Shown: positions 3,135 to 64,000 of the stretch, one piece after another
Layout of the letters: each line of letters opens with the position of its first letter
Position numbering within the stretch: position 1 is the first letter of the stretch
NCBI RefSeq assembly: GCF_963506605.1
Contig: NC_083276.1
Span: 32,984,001 to 33,048,000 of the forward strand
Direction of reading: 5' to 3'
From: Zootoca vivipara
Taxonomy: Eukaryota
Length of the DNA stretch: 64,000 bases
Notes under the pieces: model-generated
Databases searched by the model: none
What the model saw: the letters and a program-made list of their open reading frames with translations, nothing else
Told to the model about the DNA's origin: nothing
Made by a program: the position numbers and the translations under genes

Positions 3135-5223
3135 CAGCACTGTTACCTTAAGACTTGAGGATAGGGTAGATAATTCTAAATCTAAATTAAAACTACAGAA
3201 CTGAGCTGCCCCAGAAATGAAGAATGGTTCCTTTAAAGTATCCCTGGCTATTTGGCTTATGGGAATTGTAGTCCACAACTTCTGAAGGGCACTGTATTGG
3301 CTACACCTGCCTTAAAGCAAGAGGTATTTTGGAACCTTAAAAACATTAGTATGCAAAGTGAATCAGGGATTATGGATCATGGATCACTTGCTTGTCAGGA
3401 GCAACAACTGGTGATCCTAAAATTAATAACCAAAGTTGTTCAGACTGTGTGTGTTGTTCTGTCCCATTAATCTTTTGGTGTTTTTGTGTGAGCTTTCTTA
3501 GCTGCATTTTGGTATGCTGAGTCAAGCAACAACAAAAAATATCTAGCCTTTTAGGTACCACAGCATCGAGCATTCATCATCACTACTGTTGAGGAAGCAA
3601 AAAGCTGGCCTATCTTGGGGGGGGGGGTGAAGAATCTCATATTTGACTAAAGGGAGCCTCAGCTTGCAAGGTTTTCTAGCAATGAAACTGGTCAATAAAC
3701 CAATTAAAACCAACTCTGATTGAAATCTCTCCAAATGGTTTCATAGAACGTGTTTATCTCTCCTAGTAACAACTTTGGATCAGGGGAGTAAGATTGACGC
3801 CAGTCGCAGAGGAAACAAGCCGTTAGATGGAATGCAGTTAATGTTGGGAATTTCCAAAACTGCTTGACAATGAATTGCTCCCTTTCTTTTCCTCACAGTC
3901 CATTTGATCTTTAGAGATTGCTATGCAGAACTGGTTGGTACAACCACAAACAATGCAGCAAAATATACAAAACTGCCAGAAGAGTGTTTGTTTACGTTGG
4001 TGCATTTAGCTATCTCTGGCACAGACATCTTACAAAATCTGGTTCTCTGCGTACAGGATTTGGAGCTTGTAGGAATGGGGTGTGATTTTCATAATGCTTC
4101 TGTAAGCAACGAGTGGAGGAATCCTACTGTATCTTAAGACCGTAAGACGAAAGGTGGGCTATCAATGTAATGAGTAAATAAATAAATCAATGCCAAGATT
4201 GGTGCCAGGTGGGCTTCCCTGGGAGAGCATTCCATGCAGTTTGTCTCCTCCCATTTCCTCCTGTAGGAGAAGATTGGACACAGAAAGGAAAATGACCCAT
4301 CCTACCACATCCCACTAGGGCACCTTAAAGCTGAACAGCAATGATTCGGTGCTGCAGAATTGTCCACCCTTTATTCCAGTAGGACAGGACCCTTAAGAGA
4401 TTTTCACAAGTGCGACAAAATGTCACTCTCTGGCCATTAAAAAAGGTGGAGATTAGTATGGTTGTTGGTGTTTCTGCCACTCTAAAATGTCCTGCCCTAG
4501 CGTCTATTTTGCATTGCCTCGGGGTAACTTTCAAAGGCGCTCATCTCACTCTTCTTCCTCCTTCCTCCTTGAGGAATGAATATGACACAACAGACAAAGG
4601 GAAAGAAAATGGGTGGAAAAGTCCCTTGGAAACAGAAGCAGAAGAACATACAGGAAATGGCCTGTGAAAGAGTCCCATTCCAATGAGACGGAAGGAACAA
4701 ACACATAGCCTACCCATGGGTTGCTCCCACTGCTGCTGAAAAAAGCCCCACATACCATCAACTTCACGCTTTTAGTTTGAGAACGTGCTACCTATTTTAA
4801 TGGTCGGGATGGGCAGATAGTAGATCACTGTCTCCTGGTAGACTTCTAGGTTATTTGCAGTAGGAGATTCTGACTGCCACCCTTCAAATCAGCCGGTTAA
4901 AATTGTGAAAGCATGGGGTGACTAGGAATGGATTTTTGTATCCAAGAACTGCAAGCTCAGCTTAGTTCTAGACATTGAATCAAATCCCATTTCCCAGCAA
5001 CTGTTCAAACAAACCAAGTTCTTTTATTCTCCGTGTTCACATTTTCAACCTGGCTCTTATTATTGGATCAGGATTTTATTTTATTTTACAAAAATGTAAA
5101 GTTAGGTTTGCCATACATCTAGAATTGACGTCCAGGGAGAATTTCCGAAAGGTGGCTCTTTGTCAAGTCAATCGAAAAATCACAGTTTTGGGGAATATTT
5201 GGGGTCTTCCTATAAAAAGCTCA

Positions 5224-36160: not shown

Positions 36161-36339
36161 NNNNNNNNNNNNNNNNNNNNNNNNNNNNNNNNNNNNNNNN
36201 NNNNNNNNNNNNNNNNNNNNNNNNNNNNNNNNNNNNNNNNNNNNNNNNNNNNNNNNNNNNNNNNNNNNNNNNNNNNNNNNNNNNNNNNNNNNNNNNNNNN
36301 NNNNNNNNNNNNNNNNNNNNNNNNNNNNNNNNNNNNNNN
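36161..36339. other. Assembly gap (179 N)
   Basis: Run of N. Confidence 1.
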
Positions 36340-40331: not shown

Positions 40332-40419
40332 TTTAAGTAAGATGGTCTACTTTAAGTAAGATGTCATGGACTACAACCCTTGATCTGCTCCTACCAAGAC
40401 AGAAGGTATGAGAGATATA

Positions 40420-40832
40420 TAGTGGTACCTTGGTTTACAAACACAATTGGTTCCGGAAGTCTGTACTTAACCTGAAGCGAACTTTCCCATTGAAAGTAAT
40501 GGAAAGTGGATTAATCCGTTCCAGACAGTCCGTGGAGTACTTAAACTGGAGTGTACTTAACCTGAAGCGAACTTTCCCAATGAAAGTAATGGAAAGTGGA
40601 TGATTAATCTGTTCCAGACGGGTCCGCAGAGTACTCAACCTGAAGCGTACTTAACCCGAGGTATGAGTGTAATTGGTTCCGGAAGTCTGTACTTAACCAG
40701 AAGCGAACTTTCCCATTGAAAGTAATGGAAAGTGGATTAATCCGTTCCAGACAGGTCCGCAGAGTACTTAAACTGAAAATACTCAAACCGAGGCATACTT
40801 AAACCAGGCGTACTTAAACCGAGGTATGACTT
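40420..40832. mobile_element. Tigger-like MITE with three internal ~110-120 bp repeats
   Basis: AGTGGTACCT...GAGGTATGACT ends; repeated GAAGCGAACTTTCCCA(T/A)TGAAAGTAATGGAAAGTG. Confidence 0.85.
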
Positions 40833-51448: not shown

Positions 51449-53097
51449 TCCATGACCCCTCCTGCTTCTCAGTATTATCAAGAACACACTAGATCCGGAA
51501 TTACGTAACTAGTTTCTGTCTTAGGTGATAAATTTCATGACAGGTTGATTGTTACAAGGCAAAAAGGCTGCACTAGGAAGAGTTGACACAGAATGGGAGA
51601 TTGCATAACATAAAGGATTAAAGTTGAGAAATTTAGAAAAAAATGAACTTCTCATCTGAGGAGAAAGAGAAGAAGGTAGACAACCTGATGCAGTGTGCGT
51701 CATTTTTTAGAAGGATTCCCTGATCAAACCAGGAAGAAACTCGCTGCGTGCAGCACAAGTGGGAACACATTTCGGTTGCTGTAGCAACCACCAATACATA
51801 TTGAGCAACTGAGGCAAGTCTGTTCTATGGCAAGCATTAAACACTCTCTACAGCACGGCCAAAAGTTACAAAACATAAGAAGCTGCCTGATACCATGTCA
51901 AACCATTGGTCCATCCATTATTTCTACAATGACTGGCAGCAGTTGTTCTGCAGAATGTCAAACGGGGTTTCCCTCCCAGCCTTACCAGGATATGCCAAGG
52001 ATTGAAGTTGGGGCCTTCTGCATGCAAAGCAAGTGTTCTGTCCCTGAACTACATTGCCCTAAACAATGTTTTCAGTCTTCAGATCGGTATTAGAAACTCA
52101 GGTATATAAGTTAATCACTAAAGGTCACCTAAAGTAAGCCTAGACACTACCCCCCCCCCGTTGGAGTTTATTCTTAGTCTTATTAATTTCATTTCCATAC
52201 CAGTTTATATTTTAAAGAAAACATCTCAAAGTGGTTTACAACTCATTAAAACATCAAATAAAACAATCTAGAATAAAAGAAATTCAAGCTTCAAGGGAAA
52301 TATTTCAGAAATACTTCTCTAAGTGACATTTTGCTTTCCCCATATTTATTTCCCTACTTAATTCATATAGCTGCCCCATAGCAGAGGTACTCTAGCCAGT
52401 GTGGTGTAGTGGTTAGAGTGCTGGACTATGACCTAGAAGATCAGGGTCCAACTGGCAAGTTTCCAATTGCAACTATGTGGAGATCTGTGAATGTCAGGTT
52501 GGTGACAAACATCTCCATCTGGCTGGCCTCTCCAGCTTTCCAGTACTTCTGGGTCGCTGCGAGACGCAACCTGAAAAAACGTAACATGAAGCAAACGTAA
52601 CATGAGGTATGACTGTACTCCTTGGAGAAAAATGTGGGATATGAATGCAATAAATAAGCTCTTCTGCTTACCTGCTTAAGAAAGCTGGAGAGGCCAGCCA
52701 GATGGAGATGTTAGTCACCAACCTGACATTCACAGATCTCCACATAGTCGCAATTGGAAACTTGCCAGTTGCAAAACGTGCCTGGCTAATTTCGAACACT
52801 GCTTCAAATGGGAACATACACTAGGAACACTAGGAACAGGACATTGATTGTGGTGTGGCTCGATCTAGGAGCTTCCAACAAGGCCTCCAGAACTACCCTC
52901 TTACTGCAAAGACACCCATCCTATTTCTAACTTGCCCTGTTAGAAACACACGCAAAGGTCTGCAGCTTTCTCCCCAGCCATCCCCTCCAAATGCATTTTC
53001 CTCCCAGCTGGGTGCAGTTCTGGTATTAGAGCCTAAGTGTAGGGGGAAATGAGTTTGGGCAACAGACTATGGGAACCCTCTCACTCACTTGCCTATT

Positions 53098-58722: not shown

Positions 58723-59065
58723 CTTAAAAAAAAAGAAAGAGAGAGGGTAAAAAGTTGAAAGAAAAGCAACAATGAAACATTGTTTCATTATACCCTGCTA
58801 TTTTTGTTTTTTTCAACCAGGTTTTATATATATTCAATGAAAGAAAATAAATTGGTAACGGGCACAGAATTCAGCAACCAAGCTTTCTTTTATTGTTCTT
58901 TTTACTGTAGAGAAGTTTCTAGTCCTTATGTTTGCAATGATAAGCTTCAATGTATATGGGCAATATCTTATGAAGATTAAGAAGTCAGAAGTTGAAAACT
59001 TCTACAACCTGCATATTTATTTGCCACTCATCTAAGTCCATATAAAAAAACTGAAAATTAATGTA

Positions 59066-59222
59066 CAGTGGTACCTCGGTTTATGAACACAATTGGTTCC
59101 AGAAGTCTGTTCATAAACTGAAGCGAACTTTCCCATTGAAAGTAATGGAAAGTGAATTAATCCGTTCCAGACGGGTCCGTGGAGTACTCAACCTGAAGCG
59201 TACTTAACCCGAAGCATGGGTG
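59066..59222 (+). mobile_element. Left part of a Tc1/mariner (Tigger-like) MITE interrupted by the Gypsy element
   Basis: TA + CAGTGGTACCTC terminus; same family as 40420-40832. Confidence 0.8.
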
Positions 59223-59987
59223 TGTGACAAATTGAAGCACTTTTGAAATGTTTATTTCTGTCCGGCTGGCAAAGAGTTAACCCACCTTCAGCCTGACTGG
59301 CATAGAACTCTGATGGGGGCGGGACTGTGCCCGGTTTTAAAAAAGGAGGGAGAGTCGGTTTGGTCAGTTAGGAGGGAGAGGGAGGAAGGTGTGGTGTGGT
59401 GTTATGTGGTGGCTTGTATGAAGACAGTTAAGAGGCTAGGACAACTTAAAGTTAAATGTTTGACTGAGTTTATTTTGTACAACTGGAACAAAGCTAATTA
59501 ATAAATGACACGTTAAAGAATCACTTATGTTTTTAACACAATAAAACTTCATCTCTGTTTTTGCCAACAAGAGGTCCGTTTGTATTTTTCCAGCGAGGTA
59601 CCAGGACTCACAGCCGTGGTGACTCAAGAGAGGGCCAAACTCACCTCAGGCAGGGAGGTGGTGGTTTGTGTCCTGAAGTTACACGGAGGAGGCTTAGAAG
59701 GGTAACCTGAGGTGCCAAGAAGTTGCCAGAGTGCCTAGGGCAAACTTCTACAGTGGGGGAATCCAACTGAGGGAGACCCTTTACAGGAGGCAAGAGGTTA
59801 TTCCTGGGGGACAGCCTAGAGTTTCTTAAGGTACCAGGTCACGCAAGCTGGAAGGCTCTCCTTACTAAGAAACCCATCAGTAAAAGGGGTTGATTTTTGA
59901 GGCGGCAGGAGCAGAGGGTGGGTGTTTTCCCCTCTGGATTCCTGTGTCGCAGTGATAGTAGGAGAGAGTGGGACACGGGTCGTCACA
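59223..59987 (+). repeat. 5' LTR (765 bp, TGTGAC...GTCACA)
   Basis: Inverted terminal hexamers; internal AATAAA; followed by PBS; first 424 bp repeated at 63577-64000. Confidence 0.93.
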
Positions 59988-59991
59988 TTTT

Positions 59992-60002
59992 TGGTGGCAG
60001 CG
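59992..60002 (+). promoter_or_regulatory. Primer-binding site TGGTGGCAGCG
   Basis: 4 nt after the LTR end; complementary to the 3' end (CGCTGCCA-CCA) of vertebrate tRNA-Leu(AAG/TAG). Confidence 0.8.
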
Positions 60003-60071
60003 TCGTGATCGAAATTCAAAGCACACGCGCCTAGTTTGGTTTGAGTCTGTCAGGATTTTCCTGTGAGGAAA

Positions 60072-63000
60072 ATGACTCACGTAAGAAAACCCAGAGAGGC
60101 AAAAGGAGATGAAAGAACGGAAGGGGCTGAGGGAAGCCCAGGTTCTGAGGTAGAACTGATGAAACTACGAATTGAGATGGCCCGAATTGAAGCTGAGAGG
60201 GAAAAGATAGCAGCTGAAAGTGAGAGGGAAAAAGCCAGAATTGAAAGTGAGAGAGAAAAAGCCAGAATTGAAGCTGAGAGGGAAAAGATAGCAGCTGAAA
60301 GTGAGAGGGAAAAAGCCAGAATTGAAAGTGAGAGAGAAAAAGCCAGAATTGAAGCTGAGAGGGAAAAGATAGCATCTGAAAGTGAGAGGGAAAAAGCTAG
60401 AATTGAAGCTGAGGAGAGAATGCAGTCCGAGAGGTTAAGGGTTCAATTAGAACAGGACAGAATGAAGCTTGAGGAGATACGTTTGAGATCAGAATTAACT
60501 CGGAGTCCAGTTAACAATGATAGTATCGCAATTAATTTAAAAAGGTTCCCCAAATTTGGAAAAGACGATAATGTCGAATCGTTTCTATTTACCTTTGAAC
60601 GCGTTTGTGTGGAATTTCAAATACCTGAGGAGAACTGGATGCTTTATTTAAGACCTCAAATTTGTGGGATACTAAGTGAAATTTATGCTGACCTGAGGGA
60701 AGAAGAGCTGTCAAGTTACCAAGTATTTAAGCAAAGGGTCAGGGTTCGATGTGGACTCACGGCTGAACAAAGCATAAAGGCTTTTCGTGAGGCAAAAAAG
60801 GAACATAAAGAGACTTATGCCCAACTAGCTAGCCGCTTAGATAAATTACTTGACAGATGGATTCAAGGGAGTGGAGTGAAGGACTTTGATGAGTTAAAAC
60901 AATTAATTTGTTTAGAACAATTTTTTAAGCAAATCCCTAGCAATTTACGTTGGTTCTTGAGGGATAAAAAACTGAAAACTGTGGCACGGGTTGCTGAGGT
61001 CTTAGACGAACTACAAGGAGATTTCAATGAAATAGCATTCCCAAAACACTCACAGAAGGGTAATCCATGGAGAAACAGAGAAAATAAAGACAGGCAAGAA
61101 AATTTTCCTGTCAGGGAATCAGTTTCTGACAAGACAGGTTCTAAGAAAATCACTTGTTTTTTCTGTAATCGTGAGGGCCATGTACGTGCCAGGTGCCCCC
61201 TGCTGGTTAAGTCGCAAACTACACCTTCTGCAGCTAAACAAGTAAAACTGGTAATGCAGTCTCAGGAAAATAGCTCGCCTCAGACAGAAGACTCAGAGAA
61301 ATCAGACAGTCCAGCTGAGACTACTTCTAAGGTCTTACAGGTCTGGAGGGCTGAGCAGGAGTGCAACCAAGATTACATGGAGCCAATTGAATTAAATGGT
61401 CAGTCTTTTTTAGGTTTGAGGGACACAGGAGCAGAAGTCTCACTTGTCAAATCACAATTTGTTCCAAAGGAGCAGTACCTCAAGGGTCAGTCCTATAGTT
61501 TAAAAGGCATATGGGGCCCACATTTTGAAGTACCATTAGCTGAAGTTGATATTACCTACAAAGGATTTTGTGGCAAATGGAGAGTAGGAATCCTAAATGA
61601 ATTGGAGGTACCCTTTTTAATAGGGAATGACCTAGCTAGTCAGAAGCACCGTATTCAAGTGATAACTAGGTCACAGTCTCAAGTCACTGAGAGTAATCCT
61701 CCTGCAGTTATAGAGTCACCCATAGAGCCTGGTGAGGATGAAGGGCTGATTAGCGTGCCAGTGGTCCAGGAGCACGGTGCCCAATTCTTGAGTGATCAAA
61801 AAGAGGATGAAACTATAAAAGAGCTGTGGGGTAAAGCACAAAGTCCTACTGCAGAAGTAACTGTGGAGAACCCCTGCTTATTTACCACCATTGAGGGAAG
61901 ACTGTATAGAATTTCTAGGAGGAGGAAAACTGCTGCTGTTTGGGAAAGGAAGAAACAGTTAGTGTTGCCAAGAGCTTACCGGTTGCAAGTGCTACAAATG
62001 GCACACGACGCACCCTCAGCAGCGCATCTAGGCATTAGAAAGACTAGTGATAGAATCCAAGCAAGATTTTACTGGCCTGGGATGGGCAAAGACATCAAAG
62101 AGTATTGCAAGTCCTGTGTGATCTGCCAAAAAGCAGGCAAAAGAGCGGACAAAACGCGAGGCTTGTTACAGTCTATTCCTGTAATTACTGAGCCCTTTTC
62201 CAGAGTAGGAGTGGACATCCTCGGGCCTATCTCCAGAGTTACAAAAAGTGGGAATAAATTTATTTTATGCCTCGTGGATTATGCTACGCGCTATCCAGGA
62301 GCAATACCTCTGAAGGACATTGACTCAAAGACTGTAGCAAAAGCCCTCATGTCGGTGTTCTTAAGGCTTGGATTCCCCAAAGAAATTATAACAGATTTAG
62401 GGACATTCTTCACGTCCAAGACCATGGAAGAGCTTTTAACTCTTTGTGGGGTTAAGCATGTTAAAACTACGGCTTATCATCCGCAGTCGAATGGCTTGAC
62501 GGAGAAATTTAATTCGACCCTGAGCCGGATGCTAAAAACCTATTCCATCAATCATCCTAACGACTGGGATGAGAGGCTGCAACACTTCCTATTTGGTTAT
62601 CGCGAAGTGCCGCAGGAGAGCACAGGGTTCAGTCCTTTTGAACTCCTATTTGGACGACAGCCACGAGGACCCCTAGACTTGATGAAAGCAGCGTGGTCAG
62701 GGGAGGAGCAGATCGACAGCCCTGATGTTGTGACGTATCTACAGGAGCTGCAGAGCGACCTTCAAGAGCTACGGGAGCAAGCTGCTCACAACTTGCAGCA
62801 GGCACAGCGTCGACAGAAGCAGTGGTATGATGCACACGCAAGAGACAGATCTTTCCAGCCCGGTGACAGTGTGCTCGTGTTAAGAACAAGACTTCGAAAG
62901 AAGTTGGAGATGTCGTGGGACGGTCCCTTCAAAGTGGTCGAGAGGATATCAGCGGTGAACTATTTAGTAGAGTTAGATGGGGAAGGGGACCGATGTAAAA

Positions 63001-63263
63001 ACTTTCATGTAAATTTACTTAAGCCTTATTTTGACAGAAATAAGTTGGTGTTACAAGTAAAGGGGAAGGTGACCCAAGGGATTCATTTAACTGGGTGGGG
63101 AGAGCTGAGTAAGGGCACAACTCTAGCAGAGGTGTCATTCGATGAAAGTCTGACCCCAGAGCAAAAGGAGCAGTTAAAATTAGTCCTTGCTCAGTTTGCT
63201 CAGATCTTCTCAAACATCCCAGGGAGGACCAGCCTAGCAACTTATAAAATAGACACAGGGTAA
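60072..63263 (+). CDS. Gag(SCAN-like capsid, CCHC knuckle)-protease-integrase polyprotein, ~1063 aa from the ATG at 60072
   Basis: LEQFFKQIP SCAN-like motif; CFFCNREGHVRARC at 61155-61196; LRDTGA (Asp 61422); HHCC; D(62214)-D(62394)-35-E(62502); WDGPFKV; ends in the pre-RT linker IFSNIPGRT..IDTG*. Confidence 0.93.
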   Translation: MTHVRKPREAKGDERTEGAEGSPGSEVELMKLRIEMARIEAEREKIAAESEREKARIESEREKARIEAEREKIAAESEREKARIESEREKARIEAEREKIASESEREKARIEAEERMQSERLRVQLEQDRMKLEEIRLRSELTRSPVNNDSIAINLKRFPKFGKDDNVESFLFTFERVCVEFQIPEENWMLYLRPQICGILSEIYADLREEELSSYQVFKQRVRVRCGLTAEQSIKAFREAKKEHKETYAQLASRLDKLLDRWIQGSGVKDFDELKQLICLEQFFKQIPSNLRWFLRDKKLKTVARVAEVLDELQGDFNEIAFPKHSQKGNPWRNRENKDRQENFPVRESVSDKTGSKKITCFFCNREGHVRARCPLLVKSQTTPSAAKQVKLVMQSQENSSPQTEDSEKSDSPAETTSKVLQVWRAEQECNQDYMEPIELNGQSFLGLRDTGAEVSLVKSQFVPKEQYLKGQSYSLKGIWGPHFEVPLAEVDITYKGFCGKWRVGILNELEVPFLIGNDLASQKHRIQVITRSQSQVTESNPPAVIESPIEPGEDEGLISVPVVQEHGAQFLSDQKEDETIKELWGKAQSPTAEVTVENPCLFTTIEGRLYRISRRRKTAAVWERKKQLVLPRAYRLQVLQMAHDAPSAAHLGIRKTSDRIQARFYWPGMGKDIKEYCKSCVICQKAGKRADKTRGLLQSIPVITEPFSRVGVDILGPISRVTKSGNKFILCLVDYATRYPGAIPLKDIDSKTVAKALMSVFLRLGFPKEIITDLGTFFTSKTMEELLTLCGVKHVKTTAYHPQSNGLTEKFNSTLSRMLKTYSINHPNDWDERLQHFLFGYREVPQESTGFSPFELLFGRQPRGPLDLMKAAWSGEEQIDSPDVVTYLQELQSDLQELREQAAHNLQQAQRRQKQWYDAHARDRSFQPGDSVLVLRTRLRKKLEMSWDGPFKVVERISAVNYLVELDGEGDRCKNFHVNLLKPYFDRNKLVLQVKGKVTQGIHLTGWGELSKGTTLAEVSFDESLTPEQKEQLKLVLAQFAQIFSNIPGRTSLATYKIDTG

Positions 63264-63309
63264 GCACATAAGTGGGAAGGAAAACATCATAGCGGACGCT
63301 TTGTCTAGG
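63262..63309 (+). pseudogene. Out-of-frame RNase H C-terminal remnant KHISGKENIIADALSR
   Basis: The +1 frame at the ORF stop encodes the Gypsy RNase H terminal motif HxxGxxNxxADALSR. Confidence 0.85.
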
Positions 63310-63576
63310 TATATTTTTGAGAGGTATAGAATGGTGCAAAGTATTATATGAAACGGTGGTAACCCTAGCAAAACATTTGTGCTTAGGCGTTATAATCTAA
63401 CACATGTCAAACATGGTTTATTTGTGTACAAGTTTATGAGATGTTAATTTAGTTGACTTTGTAATATGAGTGTTATAGAATGCATTGAAGGATTTATAAC
63501 CCCAAGCCCATTGCTTTGGCATTGCTCTAGTTAGTTAAGAGCAAGCCGACGCAATGTCTTTGTGGTGGGGGAGATA

Positions 63577-64000
63577 TGTGACAAATTGAAGCACTTTTGA
63601 AATGTTTATTTCTGTCCGGCTGGCAAAGAGTTAACCCACCTTCAGCCTGACTGGCATAGAACTCTGATGGGGGCGGGACTGTGCCCGGTTTTAAAAAAGG
63701 AGGGAGAGTCGGTTTGGTCAGTTAGGAGGGAGAGGGAGGAAGGTGTGGTGTGGTGTTATGTGGTGGCTTGTATGAAGACAGTTAAGAGGCTAGGACAACT
63801 TAAAGTTAAATGTTTGACTGAGTTTATTTTGTACAACTGGAACAAAGCTAATTAATAAATGACACGTTAAAGAATCACTTATGTTTTTAACACAATAAAA
63901 CTTCATCTCTGTTTTTGCCAACAAGAGGTCCGTTTGTATTTTTCCAGCGAGGTACCAGGACTCACAGCCGTGGTGACTCAAGAGAGGGCCAAACTCACCT
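63577..64000 (+). repeat. 3' LTR (partial), preceded by PPT-like GGTGGGGGAGATA
   Basis: No mismatch seen by eye versus 59223-59646; duplicated ORF-track translations are identical. Confidence 0.95.

Follow-up and report, generated by a model that had tools for sequence, protein, structure and literature searches.

Semi-autonomous LTR retrotransposons are familiar as a concept; what is unusual is the retention of a whole integrase by one of them. The nearest working analogue of the element described here is the mouse IAP 1-delta-1 sub-type, a betaretrovirus-like ERV which, in the available text of PMC6466679, is internally deleted, needs proteins supplied in trans, out-transposes its parent and has kept an ORF with a reported cis action. 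Both are internally deleted sub-types that keep an ORF, but in the IAP element, as far as that account goes, a 1.9-kb deletion fuses partial gag to partial pol, whereas the lizard element keeps the whole of Gag, protease and integrase and its ORF just stops. Plants offer a series of semi-autonomous RT-less families: RLG_Sabrina_SA and RLG_WHAM (PMC9744471), RLG_Quinta (PMC11302176) and the TR-GAG elements cited in PMC13570524. These likewise lack RT, keep Gag or Gag-protease and need an autonomous partner, but in the portions of the sources available they lack integrase coding as well, and where INT is present in sugar-beet families it takes the form of partly decayed remnants (PMC13570524). 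In the barley pair BARE1/BARE2 the element has one ORF and is accompanied by a partly deleted, complementing variant, excess Gag being a stated problem of the system in the available text (PMC3735527). BARE2 has the opposite split to the lizard element, being without Gag and keeping Pol. Two further sources (PMC5473765, 10.1101/710657) contribute, in the parts available, only general precedents for non-autonomous elements.

Gmr1-like elements have the domain order SCAN-PR-IN-RT-RH, and their Gag is the origin of the SCAN domain (10.1101/2025.03.03.638093, in the text available). The same source terms them depleted in reptilian genomes, in contrast with the high read depth of the lizard family considered here. 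In the titles and abstracts searched, RT-less Gmr1 families are not described; the family may be catalogued in Repbase or Dfam.

The element at the end of the 64-kb window (the whole stretch of DNA analysed) is best read as a copy of an RT-less Gmr1 sub-family that occupies more than one locus in a lacertid lizard; the sub-family likely spreads on the RT of a partner and likely supplies its own capsid, protease and integrase. This reading is given a probability of roughly 0.58. The semi-autonomous LTR elements found described keep Gag, Gag-protease or a fused gag-pol; where RT-RNase H alone is lost, RT becomes the one function to be borrowed, and counts of such natural copies can show whether deleted elements act as parasites or as suppliers. 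The lizard element is also evidence that a squamate has a recently active, high-copy family of Gmr1, the lineage from which the SCAN domain came, although squamates are reported to be depleted of such elements.

Anatomy of the element

The element runs on the forward strand, as do all of its features below, from 59223 to beyond 64000, so that the window edge falls inside the 3' LTR. The 5' LTR (59223..59987) is 765 bp long, with TG...CA termini and 6-bp inverted ends. The 3' LTR (63577..64000) ends at the window edge, with ~340 nt and the target-site duplication (TSD) lying outside. No TSD is seen in the window, which stops inside the 3' LTR. Over the comparable part of the pair, 59223-59646 against 63577-64000, there are 0 mismatches in 424 nt, which puts LTR divergence below 0.7% (95% bound). 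An earlier note, made from the sequence alone, had called the element very young on the strength of LTRs without a visible mismatch over 424 bp; the identity is exact, and the age is bounded just as that divergence of less than 0.7%. At the rate seen for changes private to this copy, the probability of no LTR difference is 0.07. The letters common to both LTRs were considered as a possible inheritance from a mutated parent, a candidate that was downgraded: these letters are minority alleles.

A PBS-like stretch with a TGG start (59992..60009) begins 4 nt past the 5' LTR, and a polypurine-tract-like stretch (63562..63576) lies directly 5' of the 3' LTR, both as the earlier note had reported. 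The 64-kb window contains no tRNA genes against which to match the PBS-like stretch; the priming tRNA is presumably a Leu tRNA. The 5' insertion flank is a host repeat (59061..59222), 86-89% identical to stretches in 40415-40796, and the element is inserted in or next to a short host repeat with further copies in the window.

Between the LTRs lies a single ORF (60072..63263) of 1063 aa, without internal stop or frameshift, which reads through Gag, protease, integrase and a linker to a stop made by the deletion junction. The N-terminus of Gag contains a 27-nt tandem repeat (60180..60422), the unit number of which varies among three copies of the element. It is followed by a SCAN-like capsid C-terminal domain (60765..61022; PF02023, E 2.8e-11) and a CCHC zinc knuckle (61155..61196), for which the zf-CCHC match falls just under the Pfam cut-off and the residues were checked against relatives. 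The N-terminal part of an aspartic protease is matched at 61386..61520 (PF00077, RVP, E 6e-4, also just under the cut-off), and its catalytic D451, encoded at 61422, is the same residue in 94/94 relatives. The integrase comprises an HHCC domain and a D715-D775-E811 core (61968..62504), assigned by the Pfam H2C2 and rve profiles and by residue conservation (all three acidic residues are matched in 121/121 relatives), and a C-terminal SH3-like domain (62889..63029) that covers positions 1-35 of the 35 in the p58_C profile. The Pfam matches above cut-off are SCAN, H2C2, rve, SH3_Tf2-1 and p58_C. With 12/12 zinc or catalytic residues in agreement with nearly all relatives, the claim of an ORF of ~3.2 kb, free of stops and frameshifts and keeping CCHC, protease, HHCC and D-D35-E, holds. 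The word 'intact', also used of it, is right for the open reading frame and too strong for the protein: at two near-invariant columns of the 124 (residue 235 in the capsid, residue 743 in the integrase core) the window copy alone is changed, being unlike both sister copies and every aligned relative. The ORF is open, though in view of these two changes its function is not certain.

The linker (63030..63260, from alignment to P0005) precedes RT in full-length relatives. The end of the ORF aligns to residue 1057 of P0005, a 1481-aa protein of Pogona in which RVT_1 starts at 1105, 48 residues on. Pfam profiles detect no RVT_1 or RNase H in the ORF. Past the junction (63261..63266), the last residues of RNase H are encoded in the +1 frame (63262..63312), as found with a custom profile of the RNase H end built from 75 relatives: the 32-aa tail has no Pfam match, and it ranks top of 2822 six-frame segments with E 2.5e-4 against 0.25 for the runner-up. 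The element is ~404 residues (~1.2 kb) short of a full-length relative, and up to ~5 nt at the junction are compatible with both sides. These results agree with the earlier note on every point it had made about this region: an ORF that ends in the pre-RT linker, an RNase H end in the +1 frame, and the removal of RT-RH by an internal deletion near 63260.

The assignment to the Gmr1-like group is supported by the Pfam domain order and by the published definition, in the available text of 10.1101/2025.03.03.638093. A SCAN-like capsid, protease and integrase follow one another in one ORF, and integrase stands upstream of the RT-RNase H position, since the ORF ends just before the RT of P0005 and the RNase H tail comes after it. 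Paired LTRs with TG...CA, a PBS and a PPT are all present, the end of the 3' LTR lying outside the window. The pre-RT linker and RNase H tail are further points of likeness to Gmr1-like LTR retrotransposons; the difference is the absence of RT and almost all of RNase H, without which the element does not encode the enzymes of an autonomous one. Nor does it belong with TR-GAG or Gag-only elements, which have no Pol enzyme beyond protease and no integrase: here integrase is complete. Among the proteins compared, the nearest full-length relatives are Anolis P0312 and Pogona P0005.

The deletion at other loci and the longer form

The best homologue of the ORF, 98% identical to it, is a RefSeq protein of Zootoca vivipara, and the host is thus probably this lizard or a close relative. 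The homologue and its one cluster-mate are XP_060126466.1 (1018 aa) and XP_060129331.1 (1038 aa), both of Zootoca vivipara; they have the same end residue as the window ORF and no RT domain, and lie on separate contigs (48.7 and 102.3 Mb). Compared in pairs over 919 residues, the three copies show 18, 22 and 18 differences, and their numbers of Gag repeats are unequal; because of this they are not alleles of one young insertion. The same ORF end thus occurs at a minimum of two loci and likely at three, and the common stop suggests that the RefSeq copies carry the same junction. A one-off deletion, which the earlier note had named as fatal to its reading, is contradicted by this recurrence of the protein end.

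Sequencing data bear on the junction itself. The comparison covers 60450-64000 in four of 23 runs: X1 and X2 from organism A, X14 from organism B (a second organism label) and X21, which consists of RNA reads. A 700-nt contig of X14 covers 62595-63294 and so spans the junction, reaching 34 nt past it at a depth of 15.7 with 11 differences. In the same run one contig departs at 63266 and another joins at 63265; the unlike part of either is at least 255 letters long. The deleted and a longer form therefore coexist in X14. The search for a longer partner that the earlier note had proposed was in this sense successful, with contigs that leave and enter at the junction from the same flanking sequence; by its position, the extra part would be RT-RNase H. 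In X1 one contig joins at 63262. At the 85% setting the nucleotides 63262-63266 are compatible with either side of the junction, a pattern suggestive of a short microhomology. Two X14 contigs sum to a depth of 21.3 at 63243, and if the second represents the longer form, the ratio of deleted to longer would be ~3:1 in that run. Among the pieces listed for X1 or X2 there is no junction-bridging contig.

The family is abundant. In nine contigs of X2 the sequences that precede the LTR disagree with one another (agreement 0.49). Among the pieces listed, near-identical contigs have depths of 3599-4293 in X2 and of as much as 8911 in X1, against 9.8-23 for X2 contigs ~10-12% diverged. These figures point to a high-copy family of perhaps 'hundreds of copies', with the qualification that they cover both forms and that read depth is not copy number. 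Summed depth without a dip across the junction was rejected as a measure of deleted copies, the longer copies also covering both sides. Homologue searches (in the first, the best 7999 candidates by shared words, among proteins of up to 1861 aa) returned no near-identical RT-bearing partner protein; the next-best homologues have 43-47% identity in the first search, up to 66% on short pieces in a second, and 34% in a third.

Some minor features of these runs may be recorded. The element is found in X14 at about 98-99.8% identity, in both forms, and organism B may carry it as a close relative or through horizontal transfer. Three contigs of X2 in 61502-62933, ~88-90% identical and at depth 9.8-23, represent a low-copy related sub-family. 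One X1 contig (depth 24) omits 3053 nt, from 60528 to 63582, and is possibly a further-deleted copy; the match is weak, with 22 letters on the short side.

An RT-deleted class in Pogona vitticeps

A second set of RT-less gene models occurs in another lizard. The 191 proteins compared include 55 from one Gmr1 family of Pogona vitticeps: 15 with RT, 29 deleted, and 11 fragments or others, counts that form no ratio, being drawn from clusters with 15 of 26 and 15 of 45 members listed. One in-frame junction is common to 28 gene models (P0050, P0069, P0111 and others); two of the 29 deleted models were assigned by hand, one of these with a different junction. The class has RNase H but is without the RT polymerase and the C-terminal domain of integrase; the catalytic integrase D, D and E are retained in 29, 29 and 28 of 29.

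Its divergence is local. Just left of the junction, over the 58 integrase residues 881-938, deleted models are 18.5% diverged from P0005, against 2.2% for full-length copies, whereas its capsid, protease, integrase core and RNase H are no more diverged from P0005 than those of full-length copies. A residue near the junction is common to 24/29 deleted models and occurs in 0/15 full-length ones. On a protease-integrase tree the labels change 5 times against 11.4 when shuffled (36/44 rows; the other 8 were dropped for missing anchors), and the same tree, on the same rows, gives no support for monophyly of the deleted class. The Pogona class is apparently an independent origin of an RT-deleted Gmr1 form; it is known from gene models, in which the gap could be a predicted intron, although the residue near the junction that sets most deleted models apart tells against this.

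Single models without RT and with differing breakpoints occur in P0004 and P0027 (Pogona), P0036 (Sphaerodactylus) and P0012 (Chelonoidis). The P0012 alignment stops at reference residue 1057, like the window ORF, and one of its cluster-mates is full length. All four may be model artefacts or frameshifts.

Probable spread of the deleted form

An RNA that has LTRs, PBS and PPT but encodes no RT can be copied only when packaged with the RT of a partner. In the mechanism proposed, the deletion would have arisen when synthesis jumped from one short sequence to a matching one, most likely as a template switch during reverse transcription. Because integrase precedes RT in Gmr1 elements, the proteins upstream stay whole after the junction stop. 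The deleted and full-length RNAs or polyproteins would then co-assemble in one particle, the RNA of the deleted element being packaged in cis, and the RT of the partner would reverse-transcribe it. The deleted ORF would be translated and kept by selection, as in IAP 1-delta-1, whose ORF helps in cis. The Gmr1 order would ease such a deletion, since an in-frame join is unnecessary; the earlier claim that this order makes the deletion possible stands to that extent, although it is not the sole route by which an ORF can be kept, as IAP 1-delta-1 illustrates in the available text of PMC6466679. That the deleted form has been propagated by retrotransposition is very probable. That it also makes use of its own proteins is moderately probable, and it is here that the semi-autonomous spread put forward in the earlier note divides: the same protein end elsewhere and the coexistence of a longer form bear it out, and the use of its own proteins is the less certain part.

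Selection on the ORF bears on this second point. Variants were drawn from 40 of 99 rows, and 29 of them fall in the ORF. Twenty are common to part of the family, and of these 14 are synonymous and 6 are not, where 22-31% synonymous would be expected (p <=3.4e-4); none of the four listed indels lies in the ORF. By these counts the replicating family is under purifying selection, the variants being a mixture from deleted and longer copies. Since selected sequence could be imported by recombination with the partner, this selection is not assignable to the deleted copies as a lineage. The nine variants private to the window copy (2 synonymous, 7 non-synonymous) are as expected without selection (Fisher p 0.04 for shared against private), and the last branch to the window copy looks neutral.

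These data frame the strongest alternative, that the deleted form is a pure passenger: the proteins of the partner would do everything, and the ORF would have stayed open through youth and through recombination with co-packaged full-length RNA. The private changes do look neutral (7/9 non-synonymous), some of them at conserved columns, and in Pogona the deleted and full-length copies are interleaved on the protease-integrase tree, as recombination would give; moreover, the two RefSeq copies are visible only through their long ORFs. Refreshing by recombination alone, however, does not predict a divergence as one-sided as that in Pogona, 18.5% to the left of the junction and 3.5% to the right, and a cis role for the ORF of a deleted element has a precedent in IAP 1-delta-1 (PMC6466679, in the text available). 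The passenger account is accordingly a real but minority possibility beside a deleted form that uses its own capsid, protease and integrase.

Copying of the deleted form at the level of DNA, by segmental duplication, gene conversion or recurrent microhomology deletion with no retrotransposition of the deleted RNA, is improbable. It could draw on the ~5 nt compatible with both sides of the junction, and on the fact that neither flank nor TSD is seen for any other deleted copy; yet the copies lie on separate contigs ~2% apart in protein while the LTRs are identical here, and the same junction recurs under a second organism label. An assembly artefact, with RT-RNase H truly present at the window locus, is more improbable still. 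The window is part of a scaffold with an assembly gap of N at 36161-36339, but the independent X14 contig bridges the junction, which tells against the misassembly that the earlier note had named as a refuting condition, and two RefSeq models have the same protein end. Hardly credible, finally, is a domesticated host gene of SCAN-integrase type in place of a mobile element: the ORF is open, and vertebrates have domesticated both SCAN (10.1101/2025.03.03.638093, in the text available) and integrase domains, but the identical LTRs, the PBS and PPT in place, the high depth and the several flanks all argue against it.

Single-ORF elements require surplus Gag (PMC3735527, in the text available), and on that account a deleted form might benefit its partner. 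A broader and doubtful extension, offered tentatively, is that single-ORF Gmr1 elements, which have no frameshift to make surplus capsid, have repeatedly split in lizards into an abundant RT-less form, kept by selection as supplier of capsid, protease and integrase, and a rarer full-length RT donor, the lacertid and Pogona classes being two origins of this kind. If this were true, surveys anchored on RT would give too low a count of the Gmr1 families still live in squamates.

In RNA data for which no tissue is stated (6% of a single run), 39 of 7,521,828 records matched, and none of these lies over the junction. The 39 reads fall mostly on the LTR, none at >=99% identity. At 63577, 18 RNA reads of X21 pass into the starts of related LTRs from upstream sequence that disagrees, which suggests host transcripts reading through other copies of the LTR.

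Elsewhere in the window, a 343-aa open frame at 41221-42252 matches RVT_1 in part (E 4.8e-19), while its DNA does not match that of the LTR element; it is presumably a fragment of an RTE/BovB-type LINE. An inverted repeat at 52449-52771, with 92-nt arms that are 98% complementary, is MITE-like.
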